The translations under genes and the position numbers were made by a program. This document shows, piece by piece, positions 5,524 to 38,095 of a DNA stretch of 64,000 nt. The stretch is taken from the IMG/VR virus record IMGVR_UViG_3300045988_111022, one strand, 5' to 3'. Every line of letters begins with the position of its first letter. The stretch's first letter is position 1. The DNA is from a virus. The notes under the pieces were generated by a model. That model was not told the origin of the DNA, searched no databases, and was given only the letters and a program-made list of their open reading frames with translations.

Positions 5524-5780
5524 GACTTCTTGTTGAGTACACATCGCATGGCCGCGGTCCAGCGGCTCCGCAGACCTACAGCACCACGCTGGACATTGTG
5601 GACGATGTAGCGGAGCGGCTGTTAAAGGCCAAGACGCCGTACACATTCCGGGAGCGGAAGTACTGCACACGGGAAGCGCTGATTCTTGCATTCCTGATTT
5701 ACGACATCGAGAACCTGCAGGAACGGAGCTTCGGAGACAACGACCAGATTTTGAGCATCCGGCGGGATAGCCGGAACTGA
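5520..5780 (+). CDS. Hypothetical protein (86 aa)
   Basis: ATGA start/stop overlap with the previous gene. Confidence 0.55.
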   Translation: MRLLVEYTSHGRGPAAPQTYSTTLDIVDDVAERLLKAKTPYTFRERKYCTREALILAFLIYDIENLQERSFGDNDQILSIRRDSRN

Positions 5781-5794
5781 GGGAGGGCCACACG

Positions 5795-5947
5795 ATGAAG
5801 TTTGTAGCACCGATGGACACATGGGAGATAGTAGGCGGGAACCTGCCACCCATCCGGGTTCGCGCCCGGTCGTTCGATGAAGCCTTGAAGAAAGCAAGGC
5901 TTCGCAACCCCGGCTATTGCGCCGGCTGGGTCGTTGAGGAGGACTGA
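5795..5947 (+). CDS. Hypothetical small protein (50 aa)
   Basis: GAGGGAGGG RBS. Its stop abuts the next ATG. Below the ORF-track length cut-off. Confidence 0.45.
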   Translation: MKFVAPMDTWEIVGGNLPPIRVRARSFDEALKKARLRNPGYCAGWVVEED

Positions 5948-6292
5948 ATGATGTTCGACAAAGAGCTTATGAAGCAGCTGGCCACCATTCCAACCCAAAA
6001 TCGGGAGGAATGGTTTGCCGAGCGCGACAAGCTGGAAACGCTTGCCGTCGAAATGACCCGCATAAATGCGAAGGATATGGTGCAAAAGTACGGCATCGCA
6101 CGGGTTCTGAGGGTGCTGGCGGCGACAATCAAACAAAATCCCAAGGATTACGATGCGGATGTGGTGGAAATGGCCGGATGGGTGCCGCCCGTCCGGGCGG
6201 GTCGGGATGCGGAGATGTGGTTCTGCTCAACCATCCACCGGGCATACGTCCAAGACCTGTTTCGCCAGTATGCGAACCTGCGCAAGCTGTGA
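5948..6292 (+). CDS. Hypothetical protein (114 aa), possibly a conjugative-element-type (DUF3849-like) domain
   Basis: Coupled ORF. The family assignment is only a weak recollection. Confidence 0.55.
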   Translation: MMFDKELMKQLATIPTQNREEWFAERDKLETLAVEMTRINAKDMVQKYGIARVLRVLAATIKQNPKDYDADVVEMAGWVPPVRAGRDAEMWFCSTIHRAYVQDLFRQYANLRKL

Positions 6293-6308
6293 GAAAGGAG
6301 CCTAAACC

Positions 6309-6560
6309 ATGAAGTACGTCATTTTTACCTACGACATCCGCATGAAAGGCAAGGAAGACGAAGCCTGCATGACCGTCCTGCTGGATGATGACCGAGCAGC
6401 GGTCGTTAAGGCTGCATACGATAACCGGCAGGGGAGCAGCGAGATTGAGGACATCCTCTTGCGGTGCAAGGTCGATGACCTGTGCGCCGCCTGTGAAGCG
6501 CTCCGGGGGCGGAAGTACCTTCGCAACAGCATCAAGTGCGTGGAGATCGAGGAGGCTTGA
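6309..6560 (+). CDS. Hypothetical protein (83 aa)
   Basis: RBS AAAGGAG. Compact operon context. Confidence 0.55.
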   Translation: MKYVIFTYDIRMKGKEDEACMTVLLDDDRAAVVKAAYDNRQGSSEIEDILLRCKVDDLCAACEALRGRKYLRNSIKCVEIEEA

Positions 6561-31799: not shown

Positions 31800-32654
31800 A
31801 TGGAAACGCGAGACAAGGCGTTCACCCTTTATAAGAAAGGGATGGGATGCACCGAAATCTCAAAGAAGCTGGGCGTATCGCTGAACACGGTCAAGTCTTG
31901 GAAAAAGCGGTATTGGGATGCACAAAAGGGTGCACCCAAGAAGCGCACCCCGTCGCACCCAAAGGGTGCATCTTCAAAATGCACCCAGCAAGACCCGGCG
32001 GCTCAGCCTGAGAAGAAACCGAATCTCGGCGGCGCGCCGAAAGGGAACGTCAATGCTGTTGGCAATCATGGCGGGGCACCGCCGGGAAATCAGAACGCGC
32101 TAAAGCACGGCGGTTGGTCTGCTGTGATGTTTGGCGCGTTTTCCGAAGAAAACCAGAAAGCTATACAGGACTGCACGAAAGACGTGGATGCAGAGGACCT
32201 GCTGATACAGGAGCTTCAACTGCTGACCGCCCGCGAAGCATTTCTGCTCCAGCGCATTACGGCGGCTCAGGAAAAGAAGCAGCACATCCAGTCGGTGCAT
32301 ACATCAAAATCCAGCAGGTCTTTTACCCGGCTGGATGAGGATAAAGAAAAAGAGGCCCACGACAAGGAGGTTTACATTGAGCGGATAGATGCAAAGGTGC
32401 AAAGGGAAGAGCGCCTTCCTGGCACCAGCGTTGAGACATCAACCACCACCGAATCAAGCTACCTTATCGTGGAGCGCTTAGAGCGGCTGTTGACCGATGT
32501 ACAGCGCCAGAAGTCTAAGGTGATACAGCAGCTTGCCGACCTGCGCAGAATGAGCAACAGCGGCAAGAATGAGCTGGTAGACGACTGGGTAGCGGCAGTC
32601 GAGGCGGCGGACGCAGAAGTGGAGGGTGAAGACGATGGCGCTGAGACAACGTGA
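31800..32654 (+). CDS. terS: Terminase small subunit
   Basis: N-terminal HTH (GMGCTEISKKLGVSLNTVKSWKKRY) and repeated GGAPKGN.NA/GGAPPGNQNALKHG motifs. Confidence 0.85.
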   Translation: METRDKAFTLYKKGMGCTEISKKLGVSLNTVKSWKKRYWDAQKGAPKKRTPSHPKGASSKCTQQDPAAQPEKKPNLGGAPKGNVNAVGNHGGAPPGNQNALKHGGWSAVMFGAFSEENQKAIQDCTKDVDAEDLLIQELQLLTAREAFLLQRITAAQEKKQHIQSVHTSKSSRSFTRLDEDKEKEAHDKEVYIERIDAKVQREERLPGTSVETSTTTESSYLIVERLERLLTDVQRQKSKVIQQLADLRRMSNSGKNELVDDWVAAVEAADAEVEGEDDGAETT

Positions 32655-34032
32655 AGTCTTCGCCAAACGGCTCCCGCTGTACCGCAAAGACCCCTGCTTG
32701 TTCTTCAAAGAGGTCACACGCTTCAAGCCGGATAGATGGCAAAAAGAAGCGGCCACGGCCATTGCACAGCACCGCAAAGTTTCCATCCGTTCAGGACAGG
32801 GCGTTGGAAAAACAGCTTTTGAAGCAAACTTGGTGCTCTGGTTTTTGGCTTGCTTCCCGTATCCCCGCGTCGTGTGCACGGCACCGACCCGCCAGCAGTT
32901 GAACGATGTGCTCTGGGCTGAGATTGCCAAGTGGCAGGAGCGCAGTCCTGTCTTGCAGGCCATGCTTGTATGGACAAAGACCCGCGTCTACATGAGGGGG
33001 CACGAGAAGCGCTGGTTCGCCGTGGCCCGCACGGCCACGAAGCCGGAAAATATGCAGGGCTTCCATGAAGACAATATGCTTTTCGTGGTGGACGAGGCAT
33101 CTGGCGTTGCCGACCCCATCATGGAGGCTATACAGGGTACGCTTTCCGGAGACAACAACCGCTTACTGATGTGCGGAAACCCAACGCAGAACACTGGCAC
33201 ATTCCACGATTCGCACACCGTGGATGCCCAGTCCTACTACTGCATGAAGGTGTCCAGCAGGGACAGCCCCCGCACGAATAAGCAAAATATCGCTGACTTG
33301 GAGCGAAAGTTCGGCAAGAACAGCAATGTGGTCCGCGTCCGTGTTGACGGCGAGTTCCCGGAAAATGAGGACGACGTCTTTATTCCGATGGCGCTTGCCA
33401 CAAAAGCGGTCAATACTGAACCGCTTGAGCACAGCACTCCGGCCAGAATCTCCATTGGGTGCGACGTGGCCCGCTTTGGCAACGACGACACCGCCATTGC
33501 GAAGAACATTGACGGGGACATTAAAAAGCTGGTCACGCGCCACGGCCAAGACCTGTACGCGACAGCCGATGACATTATCGAAATGTACAAGGCCCTGCGC
33601 ACAGCGTATCCGCAGTATCGCGGTCTGATCTATGCGATTATTGACGATACGGGTGTGGGCGGCGGAGTGACGGATATTCTCAACAGGGAGAAGATTCGGC
33701 AGAAGCTGAACAAACTCATGGTTGTTCCTGTCAATTTCTCGTCTGCTGTTCCTGACAAGGAAGCCGCCGGGAGATATGCCGATATTTCAACATGGATGTG
33801 GGCTGTCCTGCGCGACATGGCGGCGTCTGGTCTCCTGCATTTGCCGGATGACGCGACCTTGATAGGTCAGCTCACGACCCGCAAGTACATCTTCAGCGGC
33901 GCGCCCTCCAAGCTGAAACTTGAAAGCAAAGAGGCTCTAAAGAAGCGCGGCCTGACCAGCCCGGACCGGGCTGATGCAGTTGCGCTGGCATTATACGAGG
34001 GCGGAATTTTTGATGTCCACAGCCTGATTTAA
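32635..34032 (+). CDS. terL: Terminase large subunit
   Basis: Walker A-like SGQGVGKT, Walker B MLFVVDEASGV, C-terminal nuclease-like region. Confidence 0.9.
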   Translation: MALRQREVFAKRLPLYRKDPCLFFKEVTRFKPDRWQKEAATAIAQHRKVSIRSGQGVGKTAFEANLVLWFLACFPYPRVVCTAPTRQQLNDVLWAEIAKWQERSPVLQAMLVWTKTRVYMRGHEKRWFAVARTATKPENMQGFHEDNMLFVVDEASGVADPIMEAIQGTLSGDNNRLLMCGNPTQNTGTFHDSHTVDAQSYYCMKVSSRDSPRTNKQNIADLERKFGKNSNVVRVRVDGEFPENEDDVFIPMALATKAVNTEPLEHSTPARISIGCDVARFGNDDTAIAKNIDGDIKKLVTRHGQDLYATADDIIEMYKALRTAYPQYRGLIYAIIDDTGVGGGVTDILNREKIRQKLNKLMVVPVNFSSAVPDKEAAGRYADISTWMWAVLRDMAASGLLHLPDDATLIGQLTTRKYIFSGAPSKLKLESKEALKKRGLTSPDRADAVALALYEGGIFDVHSLI

Positions 34033-34053: not shown

Positions 34054-36402
34054 GTGAAAAAAGTTATTCCCGGAAAAATTAAAACACAGCTGCGCCTTGA
34101 CGGTTACTATAATGTGCTGAACAAGTACGGCACCCAGCACGACAGCACGGAGTACTACCAGTGGGCGTCTGGCTCTGCGGTAAGCGATACGGAGCTGGCT
34201 GATCTCTATGCAGGAAACGGGTTGTTCTCAACCATTATTGATGCCCCGGCGGACGACGCAACCAAGAACGGCATCGACCTCGGCATCAAGGACAAAGACT
34301 TGCAGAAACAGCTCGACAACCACTTGCAGACCATCCGATACCAGAGCAAATTCGCCAAGGCTTTGCGCTGGGCGCGGCTCTTTGGCGGTGCTGCTGTGGT
34401 GATGCTGGTTGACGACGGGCGGCTCCTGCAGGATCCTTTGAACTGGCGTGACGTGCACGGCGTCGAAGAGCTGTTGGTATATGGCCGCAACGAAATGTAT
34501 CCTCTTTGGGTCAATGGGTATGAGAACAACCCGGACGATGAGGATTACCGCCGGGGAGGCACTGGCATCCCGGAGTACTACCAAGTCAACAGCGTGTACG
34601 GCAACTATGTTGTGCATTCGTCCAGATGCCTTGTTTTCCATAACTCGGACATCCCGGAAAGCTCCACTATGGCTAATCTCTACCGCACATGGGGCATCCC
34701 GGAGTATCTGCGCATTCGTGAAGAGCTGAGAAATGCCAGCATAGGCCCCGGCTATTCTATCCGCCTGCTGGAGCGGCTGTCGATGGTGACCTACAAGATG
34801 AAGAATCTTGCTGGTGTGCTTTCCACGGCAGACGGCGAGGATACGGTTCTTCAGCGTATGGAAATGCTTGACCTTGCCCGTAATCTGCTGAACATGGTCA
34901 TTATTGATGCCGACGGCGAGGATGTGGGCGTTCAATCCCTGTCTGTTGCTGGCGTTAAGGACATTCTGGACAATGCCTGTGCGATGTTGTCTGCTGTATC
35001 TCATATCCCACAGACGCGGCTTTTTGGGCGTTCCCCGGCGGGCGAGAATGCCACTGGAGAGAGTGACCTTGAGAATTACAAGGAATTCGTCGGAGGTCTC
35101 CAAAACGGTGACCTCCGCGATAACACCCGTACCCTCGTTGAGCTGATTCTTCGCGGCATGGTTTGGAACAGGGAAGTCGAGGAGATACCTGAGTACACCG
35201 TGACCTACAAGAGCGCGTGGAGCCCGTCTGACGATGAAAAGGCAGCACAAGACCAAGCTGCCGCAGTGGCACAGCTCACCAGAGCGCAGACCGCTGGCAC
35301 ATACGTCACAAATGGAATTGTCGAAGCTGAAGAAGTTCGCCGTGCGATGGTTCGGGACGAACAGTTTGACCCGGAGAATATTCTCACGGAAGCGGACATC
35401 CACCAAGACTGGGGTCTTGGCGGAGCCGATACCCAGCAGGAAGCCGCTGATGGTCAGCAACAGAACGTCGCGGACGCAAGCGGTCTTGTTACCGATGAGG
35501 GAGACTGCGGCTATGTGGCGGGCTTTGTCGTGCAGGATGGCAAGATCCTCTGCGGGCGTCGCTCCGATGGTCAAGGCTGGTGTGGCCCCGGTGGGCATAT
35601 CGAGCCGAAAGAAACGCCGGGGGTGGCCTTCCGCCGGGAAGCCAAAGAAGAGTTTGGAATTGACGTTGGGAATATTACCTATCTTGGTAACTGCAAAGGA
35701 AAACCGGATGAAATCCTCCCTGTGCAGATATACCGCGTCAACGACTATGCAGGTATCCCGGTGTGCGATCAGGAAGAGATGTTCACCGCCACATGGTTCA
35801 CCCCGGAACAGATTCTTGCCCAAGAGGTCCCCGGCGGGCTGGTGTTCGACCCATTCCGCAGGAGCGTGGAAGAATACCTCGACCAGCTGGGCCTGACGCT
35901 GGATGACTTCGACCCCAATAAGCACAAACGCGATGAGGACGGAAAGTTCTCCAGCATGGGGAACACAACATCAAAAGATGAATCGGGCAAGGAAAATTCG
36001 TCAAAAGACTTGAATGATTCCCAAAGTCATGCTAAAATAAATTCTAACGCAGTTTCGGCAAAAGGCGCAAACGCTTTCAAAGTGAAAGGGTTTCCCAACA
36101 AGCAGAAGCTGAACAACCACTGGCAGAACGGAAGAACCCACGCCGCTGAGTACGCTCCCGATGGCATTACAACAAAGGAGCAGTACGAAAAGCGGGCGGT
36201 TCAACTTCTGGAAAGCCCCTGTGGGAACGGTATCAAGGGCTATAAGACAAAAGATGGCCTTATATGCCGATACGATACGAAGAAAAATGACTTTGCGAAA
36301 GGTTCCCCGGAGAAAGGCGTAAGAACGATGTTCAAGCCCGATGATGGGGAAGAGTATTATAGACGCCGACTTGAGGCCGAGGGAATAGAGAACGATGAAT
36401 GA
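34054..36402 (+). CDS. Portal protein fused to a NUDIX hydrolase domain and a C-terminal nuclease-like domain (782 aa)
   Basis: Portal (DUF1073-like) spans about aa 1-470. Nudix box GGHIEPKETPGVAFRREAKEEFGI at nt 35587-35658. C-terminal ~150 aa with NHWQNGRTHAAEY.... Confidence 0.85.
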   Translation: MKKVIPGKIKTQLRLDGYYNVLNKYGTQHDSTEYYQWASGSAVSDTELADLYAGNGLFSTIIDAPADDATKNGIDLGIKDKDLQKQLDNHLQTIRYQSKFAKALRWARLFGGAAVVMLVDDGRLLQDPLNWRDVHGVEELLVYGRNEMYPLWVNGYENNPDDEDYRRGGTGIPEYYQVNSVYGNYVVHSSRCLVFHNSDIPESSTMANLYRTWGIPEYLRIREELRNASIGPGYSIRLLERLSMVTYKMKNLAGVLSTADGEDTVLQRMEMLDLARNLLNMVIIDADGEDVGVQSLSVAGVKDILDNACAMLSAVSHIPQTRLFGRSPAGENATGESDLENYKEFVGGLQNGDLRDNTRTLVELILRGMVWNREVEEIPEYTVTYKSAWSPSDDEKAAQDQAAAVAQLTRAQTAGTYVTNGIVEAEEVRRAMVRDEQFDPENILTEADIHQDWGLGGADTQQEAADGQQQNVADASGLVTDEGDCGYVAGFVVQDGKILCGRRSDGQGWCGPGGHIEPKETPGVAFRREAKEEFGIDVGNITYLGNCKGKPDEILPVQIYRVNDYAGIPVCDQEEMFTATWFTPEQILAQEVPGGLVFDPFRRSVEEYLDQLGLTLDDFDPNKHKRDEDGKFSSMGNTTSKDESGKENSSKDLNDSQSHAKINSNAVSAKGANAFKVKGFPNKQKLNNHWQNGRTHAAEYAPDGITTKEQYEKRAVQLLESPCGNGIKGYKTKDGLICRYDTKKNDFAKGSPEKGVRTMFKPDDGEEYYRRRLEAEGIENDE

Positions 36403-36592
36403 CGAAACCATTTGCCCGCTGTGTGGGCAGCATCACTTTGAAGAGAACGACGATTTTGAGGAATGCCCTGTGTGCGGTTGGGTGAATGACGGCGTACAGC
36501 GCGCAGATCCCGATTATCGCGGCGGGTATAACCGCATCAGCCTGAACGAAGCAAAAAAGAAATTTGCCGCAGGCAAAAAGGTGTTTGATTAA
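36395..36592 (+). CDS. CPCC-family cysteine-rich protein
   Basis: CPLCG.......F..CPVCGWVNDGVQ..DPDYRGGYNRISLNEAKKKF. Confidence 0.75.
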   Translation: MNDETICPLCGQHHFEENDDFEECPVCGWVNDGVQRADPDYRGGYNRISLNEAKKKFAAGKKVFD

Positions 36593-36658: not shown

Positions 36659-36734
36659 GCAGTCATAGCTCAGTTGGTAGAGCGCCTGCCCTCCAAGCAG
36701 GATGCCGCGGGTTCGAGCCCCGTTGACTGCTCCA
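36659..36734 (+). tRNA. tRNA-Gly(UCC)-like with a non-canonical anticodon loop (C at position 33)
   Basis: Cloverleaf GCAGTCA/TGACTGC acceptor, GCTC/GAGC D stem, CCTGC-CCTCCAA-GCAGG anticodon arm, GCGGG-TTCGAGC-CCCGT T arm, U73, encoded CCA. Confidence 0.75.
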
Positions 36735-36737
36735 TAT

Positions 36738-36810
36738 CGAGGGTTGGCCAAGTTGGATAAGGCATGGGCCTTTGACTCCCAGACCGCCGGTTCGAGTCCG
36801 GTACCCTCGA
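36738..36810 (+). tRNA. tRNA-Gln(UUG)
   Basis: CGAGGGT/ACCCTCG acceptor, GCCAAGTTGGATAAGGC D arm, loop CTTTGAC, GCCGG-TTCGAGT-CCGGT T arm. No encoded CCA. C31-U39 mismatch. Confidence 0.8.
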
Positions 36811-36815
36811 CTTAT

Positions 36816-36892
36816 GCTGGTGTAGCTCAGTTGGACAGAGCAGTTGATTTGTAATCTTCAGGTCGTGGGTTCAAATCCCATCCCCAGCTCCA
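36816..36892 (+). tRNA. tRNA-Thr(UGU)-like with a weakened anticodon stem
   Basis: GCTGGTG...CCCCAGC acceptor (1 mismatch), loop TTTGTAA, anticodon stem GTTGA/TCTTC (2 internal mismatches), GTGGG-TTCAAAT-CCCAT T arm, encoded CCA. Confidence 0.65.
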
Positions 36893-37131: not shown

Positions 37132-37174
37132 ATGCCGGCAGAGGGAAGATTCCCGGAAAGATAAAGAGGTGTTT

Positions 37175-38095
37175 ATGCCAGTGAGAAACAACGGCCCCGG
37201 CGAATACAGTCGGGCTTCTACGACAAGAAAATCAAAGGTCGAGCCGGAATACCCGCAATGGGCAGAAAGTAAGATGCGAGCCATTGAGAACAGGCGCTTA
37301 AAAGAGCTTCAAGCTGTGGTGCGCGATTCAATGCCTGAGATACTGGCCATCGCTGCGGATGAAATGGATACGGCTTCTGAAAGCATCAGAAAAGATGGAT
37401 ACAGCGACATGGTGCGCCGCATCCAGAACAGGTTCCGCATTATGCGTGATCGGCTCAGTCGGCGGCTGAAAACCGACCCGTTGGAACGTGATGTCCGCCG
37501 CTGTGCGGATTATACAGACCGCCGCCAGCTCCAAGAATGGCAACGCAGTGTCCGGGCCACACTCGGCATCGACATCAGCAAGGACTTCTTCATTGGTGAG
37601 CGGTATGAGCAGATGCTTTCAAGGTGGGTGGAGCAAAATGTTTCTTTCATAACCAGCATCGAGAGCGATTGCTTTGATGATATGGAGAAAATCATTATTG
37701 ACGGCTTTACAAAGGGCCGAACACCCGCCGCAATTTCAAATGAGATACAGCGGCGCTTCGATGTGACCAAATCGAAAGCGAACCTTTTGGCTCGCGACCA
37801 GATTGGAACATTGAGCGCAGACCTGACTCGTACTCGACAGGAGTCCGCCGGGGTAAAGGAGTACATCTGGCGTTCGTCCGGCGACGAACGTGTGCGCGCG
37901 TGCCATCGTGAACTTGATGGTAAGACGTTTCGTTATGATGACCCGCCAGCAATGTGGTACATGACGAAGCGAGGGAAAATCTACACCGGGAGACACTGCA
38001 ACCCCGGCGAGGATTACCAGTGCCGCTGTGTTGCAAAACCCGTTTTTGACTTTAATAGGCTCAATTCTCAAGCCTTTAAGGAGAAGAAACAATGA
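37175..38095 (+). CDS. Head morphogenesis protein (SPP1 gp7 / Mu F family)
   Basis: ...ARDQIGTLSADLTRTRQESAGVKEYIWRSSGDERVRACHRELDGKTF......PGEDYQCRC. Confidence 0.88.
   Translation: MPVRNNGPGEYSRASTTRKSKVEPEYPQWAESKMRAIENRRLKELQAVVRDSMPEILAIAADEMDTASESIRKDGYSDMVRRIQNRFRIMRDRLSRRLKTDPLERDVRRCADYTDRRQLQEWQRSVRATLGIDISKDFFIGERYEQMLSRWVEQNVSFITSIESDCFDDMEKIIIDGFTKGRTPAAISNEIQRRFDVTKSKANLLARDQIGTLSADLTRTRQESAGVKEYIWRSSGDERVRACHRELDGKTFRYDDPPAMWYMTKRGKIYTGRHCNPGEDYQCRCVAKPVFDFNRLNSQAFKEKKQ

Follow-up and report, generated by a model that had tools for sequence, protein, structure and literature searches.

A Phage Portal Protein Carrying a Nudix Domain and a Predicted RNase Toxin, with an Adjacent Putative Immunity Gene, in Faecalibacterium Phages

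Results

Organization of the portal gene

The viral DNA analyzed here is the 64,000-nucleotide (nt) IMG/VR virus record IMGVR_UViG_3300045988_111022, which in its entirety is referred to as the window; our subject is its portal gene, which encodes an extended portal protein, together with the small cysteine-rich gene (CPCC) that follows it. An earlier reading of the letters alone (the original prediction) had described a portal open reading frame (ORF) of 782 amino acids (aa). An ORF of exactly this size is present on the plus strand at 34054..36402, running from a GTG start at 34054, with an AGGAG ribosome-binding site 5' of it, to a TGA stop at 36402.

A full-length AlphaFold2 model was built from a shallow alignment, and with an overall predicted local distance difference test score (pLDDT) of 59.5 it served for placing domain and linker boundaries only. 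Five parts are resolved: a portal body that extends to about aa 438 (rather than the ~470 aa originally proposed), a first linker, a Nudix domain at about aa 487-611, a second linker, and a C-terminal domain, here called the tail, modeled at aa 668-778. Both linkers have pLDDT values below 50. The portal body (aa 1-438; 34054..35367) scores 234 bits with the Pfam family Phage_portal_3 (PF06381) over aa 47-402 (cut-off 33.8; E 2.2e-69), and its matches among Protein Data Bank (PDB) sequences include solved portal dodecamers – Pam3 (8hds, 2.7e-18), E217 and others – with E-values of 2.7e-18 to 2e-8. Linker 1 (aa 443-486; 35380..35511), foreseen as Gln/Asp-rich, is an acidic, Gln/Asp/Ala-rich segment that is predicted to be disordered and is fast-evolving, with 41-63% aa identity between lineages whose portal bodies are 87-90% identical.

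NCBIfam models contribute only sub-threshold Nudix equivalogs and TIGR01555 across the ORF. FP_Brigit is a cultured Faecalibacterium phage, and NCBI names the FP_Brigit gp30 homologue WP_097780271.1 an 'anti-CBASS Acb1 family protein', a name encountered solely as a source label; no Acb1 entry is among the PDB matches of the portal body, and nothing Acb1-like was found in Pfam or NCBIfam. Judged by these matches, the name is apparently an annotation error that has spread through the PF06381 family.

The C-terminal domain and the CPCC gene

The tail (aa 668-782, about 115 aa; 36055..36399) contains all of the peptides quoted for it in the original prediction, at aa 675-769. Searched alone against Pfam it returns no family even at E-values up to 10, and thus matches none of PBECR1-5, nor Colicin_D; likewise, no PBECR, Colicin_D or Ntox match was found at E-values up to 0.01 among 146 members of the tail family. 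A search of PDB sequences with the single tail sequence gave one weak match, to 8ey4_A, a 'PT-VENN domain-containing protein' (E 0.074), and a profile of 19 tails matched the same chain at 1.6e-5. This structure is the CdiA-CT/CdiI complex of Escherichia coli O32:H37 (PMC12585627).

The tail was modeled with AlphaFold2 from the 19-tail alignment (pLDDT 91.2; predicted template modeling score 0.85), giving the topology H-H-H-E-E-E-E-H, in which three helices precede a sheet of four strands and a last helix closes the chain. This agrees with the BECR fold, for which N-terminal helices and then an antiparallel four-stranded sheet are diagnostic. Comparison of this model with the PDB using Foldseek again places 8ey4_A first (E 1.5e-5; template modeling (TM) score 0.83 on the target; root mean square deviation 1.8 Å over all 88 residues), and the next matches are structures of the colicin D tRNase domain (1tfo, 5znm and 1v74; probability ~0.94). 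A fold search of BFVD added little: a single strong match, to an unnamed entry, and a weak one to a phage protein labeled 'Colicin D'. The BECR/RNase type originally proposed for this domain is thus supported by profile and fold matches to the CdiA-CT toxin and by a fold match to colicin D.

The CdiA-CT of O32:H37 is described by its depositors as a colicin-D-like RNase that is non-specific and needs EF-Tu in vitro, and in which a core Trp supports the catalytic His (PMC12585627); the active-site signature of Tox-ColicinD is Hxx[ED] followed by [TS]xxK (PMC3482391). Both elements can be read directly in the tail, as H696-A-A-E699 and T758-M-F-K761, and there is in addition an invariant H689-W690. 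The candidate catalytic residues are H689 (nt 36118-36120), H696 and E699 (from nt 36139), R739 (from nt 36268), and T758 and K761 (nt 36325-36336). Across the 146 diverse family members G729 is invariant, and H689, H696, Y711, R739 and Y768 are at least 90% conserved; among the portal fusions T758 never varies and K761 shows at least 90% conservation. The tail model places H689 in its first helix and T758 in its fourth strand. This is the His and Ser/Thr arrangement by which active BECR and PBECR RNases are defined (PMC5512222), and a looser PBECR definition – BECR fold, His in the N-terminal helix, Ser/Thr in strand 4, and a phage head context – describes the tail. From its sequence and modeled fold, we assign the tail as a BECR RNase of the colicin-D/CdiA-CT(O32:H37) type, with predicted metal-independent activity.

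The CPCC gene (36395..36592, plus strand), which the original prediction had missed, encodes 65 aa with cysteines at positions 7, 10, 24 and 27. Its overlap with the portal stop codon is 8 nt long (GATGAATGA). The product matches the Pfam family Cys_rich_CPCC (PF14206; E 7e-16) and, among PDB sequences, the CdiI immunity protein (8ey4 chain I, E 2.4e-15; 8ey3_A, 2.6e-15). CdiI of O32:H37 is described as having a novel fold and as binding Fe3+ through cysteines (PMC12585627). Both partners of a solved toxin-immunity complex thus have a homologue here, the tail and CPCC, and we interpret these two as a toxin-immunity cassette in which CPCC is the predicted cognate immunity protein of the tail, a small Cys4 metal-binding protein whose synthesis is predicted to be translationally coupled to that of the portal. 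Homology of this gene is the strongest evidence for regarding the tail as a toxin. A literature search on 8EY4 and on CPCC with immunity gave nothing beyond one 2025 meeting abstract.

CPCC lies 3' of the tail, overlapping or directly abutting it, in all eight informative contexts. These are the window lineage (61 of 62 loci, the contig ending first in the exception); FP_Brigit gp30/gp31; a stand-alone tail gene in a Ruminococcus flavefaciens prophage; a stand-alone tail beside polyvalent-protein genes, with two CPCC copies; a PF04860 portal with the tail; a MuF protein with the tail; a portal with an ADP-ribosyltransferase (ART), a Nudix domain and the tail; and a PF06381 portal with the tail and without a Nudix domain. 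A scan for a stand-alone promoter for the tail or CPCC yielded one promoter-like site where 0.8 are expected, which is chance level.

At one locus (L075/L076, 7575-8095) a stand-alone tail gene has two Cys_rich_CPCC genes in tandem behind it, near LPD3 polyvalent-protein, MuF and MuF_C genes, an arrangement that resembles the poly-immunity arrays of polymorphic toxin loci.

The Nudix domain

The Nudix domain (aa 487-611; 35512..35886) is matched by Pfam NUDIX (PF00293) at aa 489-589 (E 1.3e-16; 61.3 bits against a cut-off of 21.1). Its box at aa 514-536 (nt 35593-35661), G514-x5-E520-x7-R528-E529-A-x-E532-E533-x-G535-I536, fits the regular expression GX5EX7REUXEEXGU, so the full domain with a canonical box had been correctly recognized; the string quoted for it, GGHIEPKETPGVAFRREAKEEFGI, is present but lies at nt 35590-35661, 3 nt away from the 35587-35658 first assigned. 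Box residues G514, E520, E529 and E532 are at least 90% conserved in homologues, and the strand and helix pattern of the alpha/beta/alpha Nudix fold is predicted with moderate confidence in the full-length model. Because these residues are conserved and the domain is under purifying selection (see below), it is probably an active pyrophosphohydrolase.

The nearest solved relatives are NUDT1/MTH1 (7.8e-10), the Bdellovibrio pyrophosphohydrolase 3ees (1.4e-9), NudG and NUDT12, with ADP-ribose pyrophosphatases more distant. We take 3ees to be an RppH-type RNA pyrophosphohydrolase; if it is, an activity on RNA 5' ends would pair naturally with an RNase, and we offer this as a lead only. The portal that joins an ART, a Nudix domain and the tail hints instead at NAD or ADP-ribose chemistry, and this too is only a lead. 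PADLOC reports a match on the Nudix domain alone, to the candidate family PDC-S07. Assignment to the T4 NudE clade found no support: among the 11 tblastn matches of the domain in 50,697 phage records, none is T4 NudE-like.

Continuity of the long open reading frame

The exact 782-aa protein is present on 492 public contigs, the longest of 1.4 Mb. When the portal body was used as sole bait, 70 loci were recovered (67 from IMG/VR and 3 from genomes). Sixty-two of them include the whole tail, and 60 of these 62 portal-anchored loci retain a single unbroken ORF, in answer to the question of continuity that the original prediction had raised. The continuous loci form two lineages, of ~99% and ~87% identity. 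One of the two exceptions is split by a 1-bp C insertion in linker 2 (L029) and the other is frameshifted within the portal body (L079). The family phrog_15528 ('portal protein', 794 positions) aligns along its full length with aa 2-782, and FP_Brigit gp30 (828 aa) aligns over aa 14-761 with 38% identity, spanning the Nudix domain, a linker motif (HPRDENGQF) and the tail. A 99%-identical prophage resides in a complete Faecalibacterium prausnitzii chromosome (strain 2, NZ_CP186691.1). This is locus L079 (3501-5850), and its portal frameshift, around aa 410-434, represents either a defective prophage or a sequencing error.

The ratio of nonsynonymous to synonymous substitution (dN/dS) between the two lineages was estimated part by part: portal body 0.04, Nudix domain 0.07-0.11, linker 2 0.20-0.24 and tail 0.05, with saturation in linker 1. 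By this measure, the Nudix domain and the tail are under strong purifying selection (dN/dS 0.05-0.11).

Split forms also occur. A search of 5.8 billion proteins with the tail alone returned 37 homologues, all of 99-199 aa, and several near-identical metagenome contigs carry the tail as a separate ORF of 129-186 aa. Four such contigs (L002-L005) have four lesions in the codons of the linker 2 motif KHKRDEDGKF: a 17-bp deletion, an AAG to TAG change, a 1-bp deletion and a 4-bp duplication. The notion that the fused ORF is the exception was rejected, as 60 of the 62 portal-anchored loci are intact; in this unbiased sample tail-splitting lesions are a minority (1 of 62). The clustering of lesions is largely an ascertainment effect, since only a lesion just 5' of Met635 gives the exact 148-aa product. 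Altogether at least five independent lesions in linker 2 (window 35920-36040; L002-L005, 5900-6130; L029, 5880-6030) detach an otherwise intact tail ORF, and database members of the split products number in the dozens (P0001, P0002 and P0005).

Distribution of the cassette and the junction motifs

An exhaustive search with the tail profile gave 1,282 cluster representatives at E-values up to 1e-3, and 431 at up to 1e-10; among the matches listed, the tail domain is at or near the C-terminus in nearly all that are full-length. Carriers were surveyed in the best 146 of the 1,282. They include 11 PF06381 portals, 11 PF04860 portals, 2 MuF proteins, 3 VG15 proteins, 1 XkdF-type prohead protease (Peptidase_S78_2) and 1 portal with an ART plus a Nudix domain, together with many short stand-alone proteins; 12 proteins also have a Nudix domain. 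All of the fused carriers (portals, MuF, XkdF-type protease and VG15) are head-associated proteins. The tail and CPCC thus form a mobile cassette, present on portals of two Pfam families, on MuF and a prohead protease, and in stand-alone form.

Linker 2 (aa 613-666; 35890..36051) is disordered and rich in Ser, Lys and Asp, and contains KHKRDEDGKF at aa 623-632 (nt 35920-35949), as the original prediction noted. Its suggestion that the motif is a recurrent one also holds, in that a junction motif recurs across the tail family: 73 of 182 members have one of two motifs 10-60 aa upstream of the tail, and never both. H-x-R-D-x-x-G-[KRQ]-F occurs in 44 members and W-x-T-x-x-G-x-H-[IV]-x-[IV] in 29, and a 1,162-aa portal carries the latter at two module junctions. 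No published description of these motifs was found in a literature search. The same toxin on different carriers, a conserved junction and an immunity gene 3' are the hallmarks of polymorphic toxins, and all three are recognizable here in the sequences. We rejected the idea that the junction motif is a general prohead-protease site, because it was not found in the other head proteins of the window; at other loci it also occurs beside or inside prohead-protease and DUF2213 genes.

Several individual loci deserve description. In an R. flavefaciens prophage (L073/L074, 9564-11318 and 7001-7791) the PF04860 portal is joined to another BECR toxin, Ntox50, and a 62-aa ORF and a 'Sequestin' gene come next; a separate stand-alone tail with CPCC lies upstream of its large terminase gene (TerL), giving this prophage two head-associated toxin modules. 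Also in L073 (11873-12979), an open in-frame stretch of 174 codons follows the stop of a Peptidase_S78 prohead protease, with the junction motif WITRNGRHILI 8 codons past that stop, and could be a decayed or recoded protease-cargo fusion. A 1,157-aa portal (P0203; L082, 2501-6185) has an ART, a Nudix domain and the same RNase tail in series, making it a three-effector portal. Behind it come CPCC, YjcQ and Ant genes, ordered as in FP_Brigit gp31-33. In L083 a large terminase with intein/Hint signatures (912-2501) adjoins a portal and tail gene, and a DUF2213 head protein (5647-6447) has a W-x-T...I motif near its C-terminus.

Genome context

The portal gene follows the genes for TerS (31800..32654) and TerL (32626..34032) in the head module, TerL lying directly before it, and the order TerS-TerL-portal fits the position of a portal after the terminase genes. 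On its 3' side are, in order, the 65-aa CPCC ORF, three tRNA genes, a MuF-family gene (37169..38095) and a gene for a DUF2213 head protein. The tRNA trio – Gly(tcc), Gln(ttg) and Thr(tgt), 36659-36892, plus strand – is thus situated within the head-morphogenesis module, between the CPCC and MuF genes and immediately 3' of the predicted RNase cassette. In relatives, a methyltransferase gene and a QueT-like gene are found just 5' of TerS.

Cumulative GC skew over positions 1-64000 climbs monotonically, the plus strand holds most of the long ORFs, and relatives are found on contigs of ~64.0-64.3 kb; the window is probably a complete or nearly complete Faecalibacterium phage genome of ~64 kb. The phage is temperate, with integrated copies in F. 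prausnitzii chromosomes.

Discussion

A portal protein as probable toxin carrier

We consider it likely that this gene is the portal of a temperate F. prausnitzii phage of ~64 kb that has become a carrier, with a Nudix domain and a terminal RNase toxin attached through flexible linkers and the CPCC immunity gene next to it. The domain identities and the toxin-immunity pairing would make the locus a phage-head polymorphic toxin system, the portal counterpart of MuF toxins. In solved portals the C-termini point into the capsid interior, so that up to twelve copies of the extension of ~340 residues, Nudix domain and tail included, would lie inside the head. Late in infection CPCC would mask the RNase and allow virion production. 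The modules could then be freed by cleavage in the disordered linker 2, most likely at or near H-x-R-D-x-x-G-x-F, and would unfold and accompany the DNA into the newly infected cell. If CPCC is absent there, the RNase would cut RNA, and by analogy with CT(O32:H37) it would do so without specificity and with the help of EF-Tu. The Nudix domain would hydrolyze nucleotides or the 5' ends of RNA, and expression of CPCC would protect a cell. The packaging and injection steps are drawn from the orientation of the portal C-terminus and from analogy with MuF toxins, T4 Alt and contact-dependent inhibition (CDI). The benefit to the phage may be host takeover or anti-defense, a lysogeny decision, or competition between strains. 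The structural reading in the original prediction is right on every testable point; its proposals of twelve packaged copies, of action at infection and of Nudix hydrolysis of immune signals or RNA caps are hypothetical.

Several observations weigh against this interpretation. The tail is recognized by no Pfam toxin model, and the Nudix substrate is unassignable from sequence, because the neighbors of the domain span MTH1, RppH-like, NudG, NUDT12 and ADP-ribose pyrophosphatase types, the best matches being MTH1-, RppH- and NudG-like. In a minority of natural variants, which evidently persist, the tail is no longer joined to the portal. Under the strict regular expressions more than half of the family members have no junction motif, and in the window the motif occurs only in the portal linker and in no other head protein. 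Presence of the extension in virions, its cleavage and its injection are argued from analogy, and a literature search found no proteomic or functional data for the window phage or FP_Brigit. A portal-tethered domain reaches the host only if it is cleaved off, and an RNase injected with the genome would endanger the phage's own early expression.

Among the alternatives, the one that fares best assigns the cassette to inter-bacterial competition or kin discrimination: particles released by lysogens would bring the RNase to sensitive Faecalibacterium cells, and carriers of the prophage or of an orphan CPCC gene would be immune. Real weight comes from the homology of toxin and immunity protein, as a pair, to a CDI module; the logic is that of CDI, Rhs and bacteriocin systems and has been proposed likewise for MuF toxins, which are limited to temperate phages (PMC5576092). 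The window phage is itself temperate and integrated in F. prausnitzii chromosomes, and one locus has two tandem CPCC genes in a poly-immunity-like arrangement. However, CPCC sits in the late head operon, overlaps the portal stop and has no independent promoter that stands out, so its expression in lysogens is not indicated; a particle would bring at most 12 toxin copies, and the Nudix domain has no obvious role in killing. We regard competition as a somewhat unlikely primary role, though a serious contender.

It is more doubtful that the extension stays on the portal and is never injected, acting in the producer cell ahead of assembly or in its course (late host shut-off or nucleotide-pool sanitation) or as an internal structural or DNA-organizing appendage like the P22 portal barrel. 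The covalent tether and the hypothetical nature of the cleavage site speak for such a role, as do the absence of the junction motif from the other head proteins of the window, co-expression of the immunity protein in the same cell, and the survival in nature of variants with an untethered tail. Yet the cassette is found repeatedly on different head-internal carriers (two portal families, MuF and a prohead protease), a pattern that points to packaging, and not action in the cytoplasm, as the target of selection; the catalytic residues and the immunity gene are conserved, which a structural role would not need, and long disordered linkers suit a releasable cargo.

We think it improbable that the tail is a catalytically dead BECR domain retained for binding RNA or protein, as has been proposed for the MuF-C domain of phage Mu gp30. 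Inactive PBECR domains do occur in head proteins (PMC5512222), and the lack of a Pfam toxin match would agree with this; but both histidines, R739 and T758/K761 are conserved, dN/dS in the tail is 0.05, and a dedicated immunity gene kept in all eight contexts is sensible only for an active toxin. That the long ORF is an assembly or frameshift artefact joining separate portal, Nudix and nuclease genes, as the separate 129-186-aa tail ORFs in near-identical metagenome contigs might have suggested, is already refuted by the 492 contigs with the exact fused protein, by fusion in 60 of 62 portal-anchored loci from two lineages 13% apart and, at 38% identity, in the cultured phage FP_Brigit, and by the four different and clearly secondary lesions of the split forms.

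Returning to the portal as a toxin carrier, we advance one further proposal that is speculative and more apt to be wrong than right: the two junction motifs might be the phage-head equivalent of VENN/Rhs demarcation, a portable tag for the loading, cutting and injection of cargo, with the RNase and CPCC forming a CDI-like weapon and the Nudix domain cooperating. Such a tag would cover cargo on a portal, a MuF protein, a prohead protease or a small stand-alone protein with a short leader. If this were so, abundant gut Faecalibacterium phages would gain a CDI-like weapon of kin discrimination or superinfection, with the Nudix domain cooperating in hydrolysis of RNA 5' ends or nucleotide signals.

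The locus is a well-resolved new example of a head-protein-borne toxin and introduces no new principle. The novelty of the fusion was over-rated in the original prediction, as portal-Nudix and portal-BECR fusions have been published (PMC9503650, PMC5512222) and the architecture is already in a PHROG and in a cultured phage. As far as we have found, what is new is a toxin/immunity family common to a phage portal locus and E. coli CDI, the putative role of CPCC as a phage-borne immunity protein, the high prevalence of the cassette in Faecalibacterium phages, and the existence of the junction motifs.

F. prausnitzii is among the most abundant and health-associated of human gut bacteria, and the lineage of the window phage is very common in public metagenomes, to judge from the 492 contigs. 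A portal-borne CDI-type RNase toxin with its immunity gene would extend the experimentally young field of MuF toxins to the portal, and it raises the mechanistic question of how a toxin tethered to a 12-fold portal is released and delivered, for which FP_Brigit is available as a cultured relative. Cys_rich_CPCC, a widespread and functionally unannotated Pfam family, gains a likely role as a phage immunity protein, and the tail establishes a large toxin family, with 1,282 cluster representatives, for which Pfam has as yet no entry.

Relationship to known systems

In overall organization the locus corresponds to FP_Brigit gp30/gp31 (NC_047909) and PHROG 15528, which have the same full architecture and the same downstream CPCC gene, and which are annotated merely as 'portal protein' and 'hypothetical protein'. 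FP_Brigit differs in the length of its portal (828 aa, 38% identity) and in being cultured, whereas the window phage is uncultured and absent from the deposited phage collection.

Fusions of PBECR, 2H and InPase domains to portal and MuF proteins were described by Iyer et al. in 2017 (PMC5512222), and Nudix domains of a T4 NudE-like clade are said to be fused to portals by Iyer et al. in 2022 (PMC9503650). As in these polyvalent proteins, effectors that include BECR RNases and Nudix domains are attached to a portal or MuF protein and are predicted to be packaged and injected. The window protein departs from them in that its tail is not recognized by Pfam PBECR1-5 and its Nudix domain is not detectably T4 NudE-like by BLAST, and whereas those accounts stress anti-defense and takeover without immunity genes, here a cognate immunity gene is always attached. 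With the colicin D tRNase (1V74, 1TFO, 5ZNM) the tail shares the BECR fold (Foldseek probability ~0.94) and the Hxx[ED] and [TS]xxK signature, but there is no detectable sequence similarity and specificity for tRNA-Arg is not implied; CPCC is unrelated to ImmD.

MuF polymorphic toxins with downstream immunity ORFs were defined by Jamet et al. in 2017 (PMC5576092); Apk2 and Bxa are characterized examples, and the role of MuF toxins is still called unknown (PMC11699363). Like the portal-tail locus they combine an N-terminal head-protein carrier, a variable C-terminal toxin and a small immunity ORF 3', and are enriched in Firmicutes and gut prophages; the same tail and CPCC cassette is also found on MuF proteins. 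Here, in contrast, the carrier is the portal, whose 12 copies form the core structure of the vertex, and not MuF/gp7, a low-copy protein; an extra Nudix module stands between carrier and toxin; and the phage's own MuF protein (37169..38095) has no toxin.

There is also a correspondence with the CdiA-CT/CdiI pair of E. coli O32:H37 (8EY4, 8EY3; PMC12585627). Dependence on EF-Tu, non-specific RNase activity and neutralization by the immunity protein are known for the E. coli protein only, the toxins are only ~26% identical, and the carriers are different: a type V secreted filament of a proteobacterium in one case and the portal of a phage of a Gram-positive gut bacterium in the other. The toxins are nevertheless homologous by profile (E 1.6e-5) and alike in fold (TM score 0.83), and CPCC is homologous to CdiI (E 2.4e-15), with the same Cys4 CPCC metal site, here predicted from sequence. 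In both systems the immunity gene lies immediately 3' of the toxin, and a short motif precedes the toxin domain – VENN in CdiA, and H-x-R-D-x-x-G-x-F in the portal.

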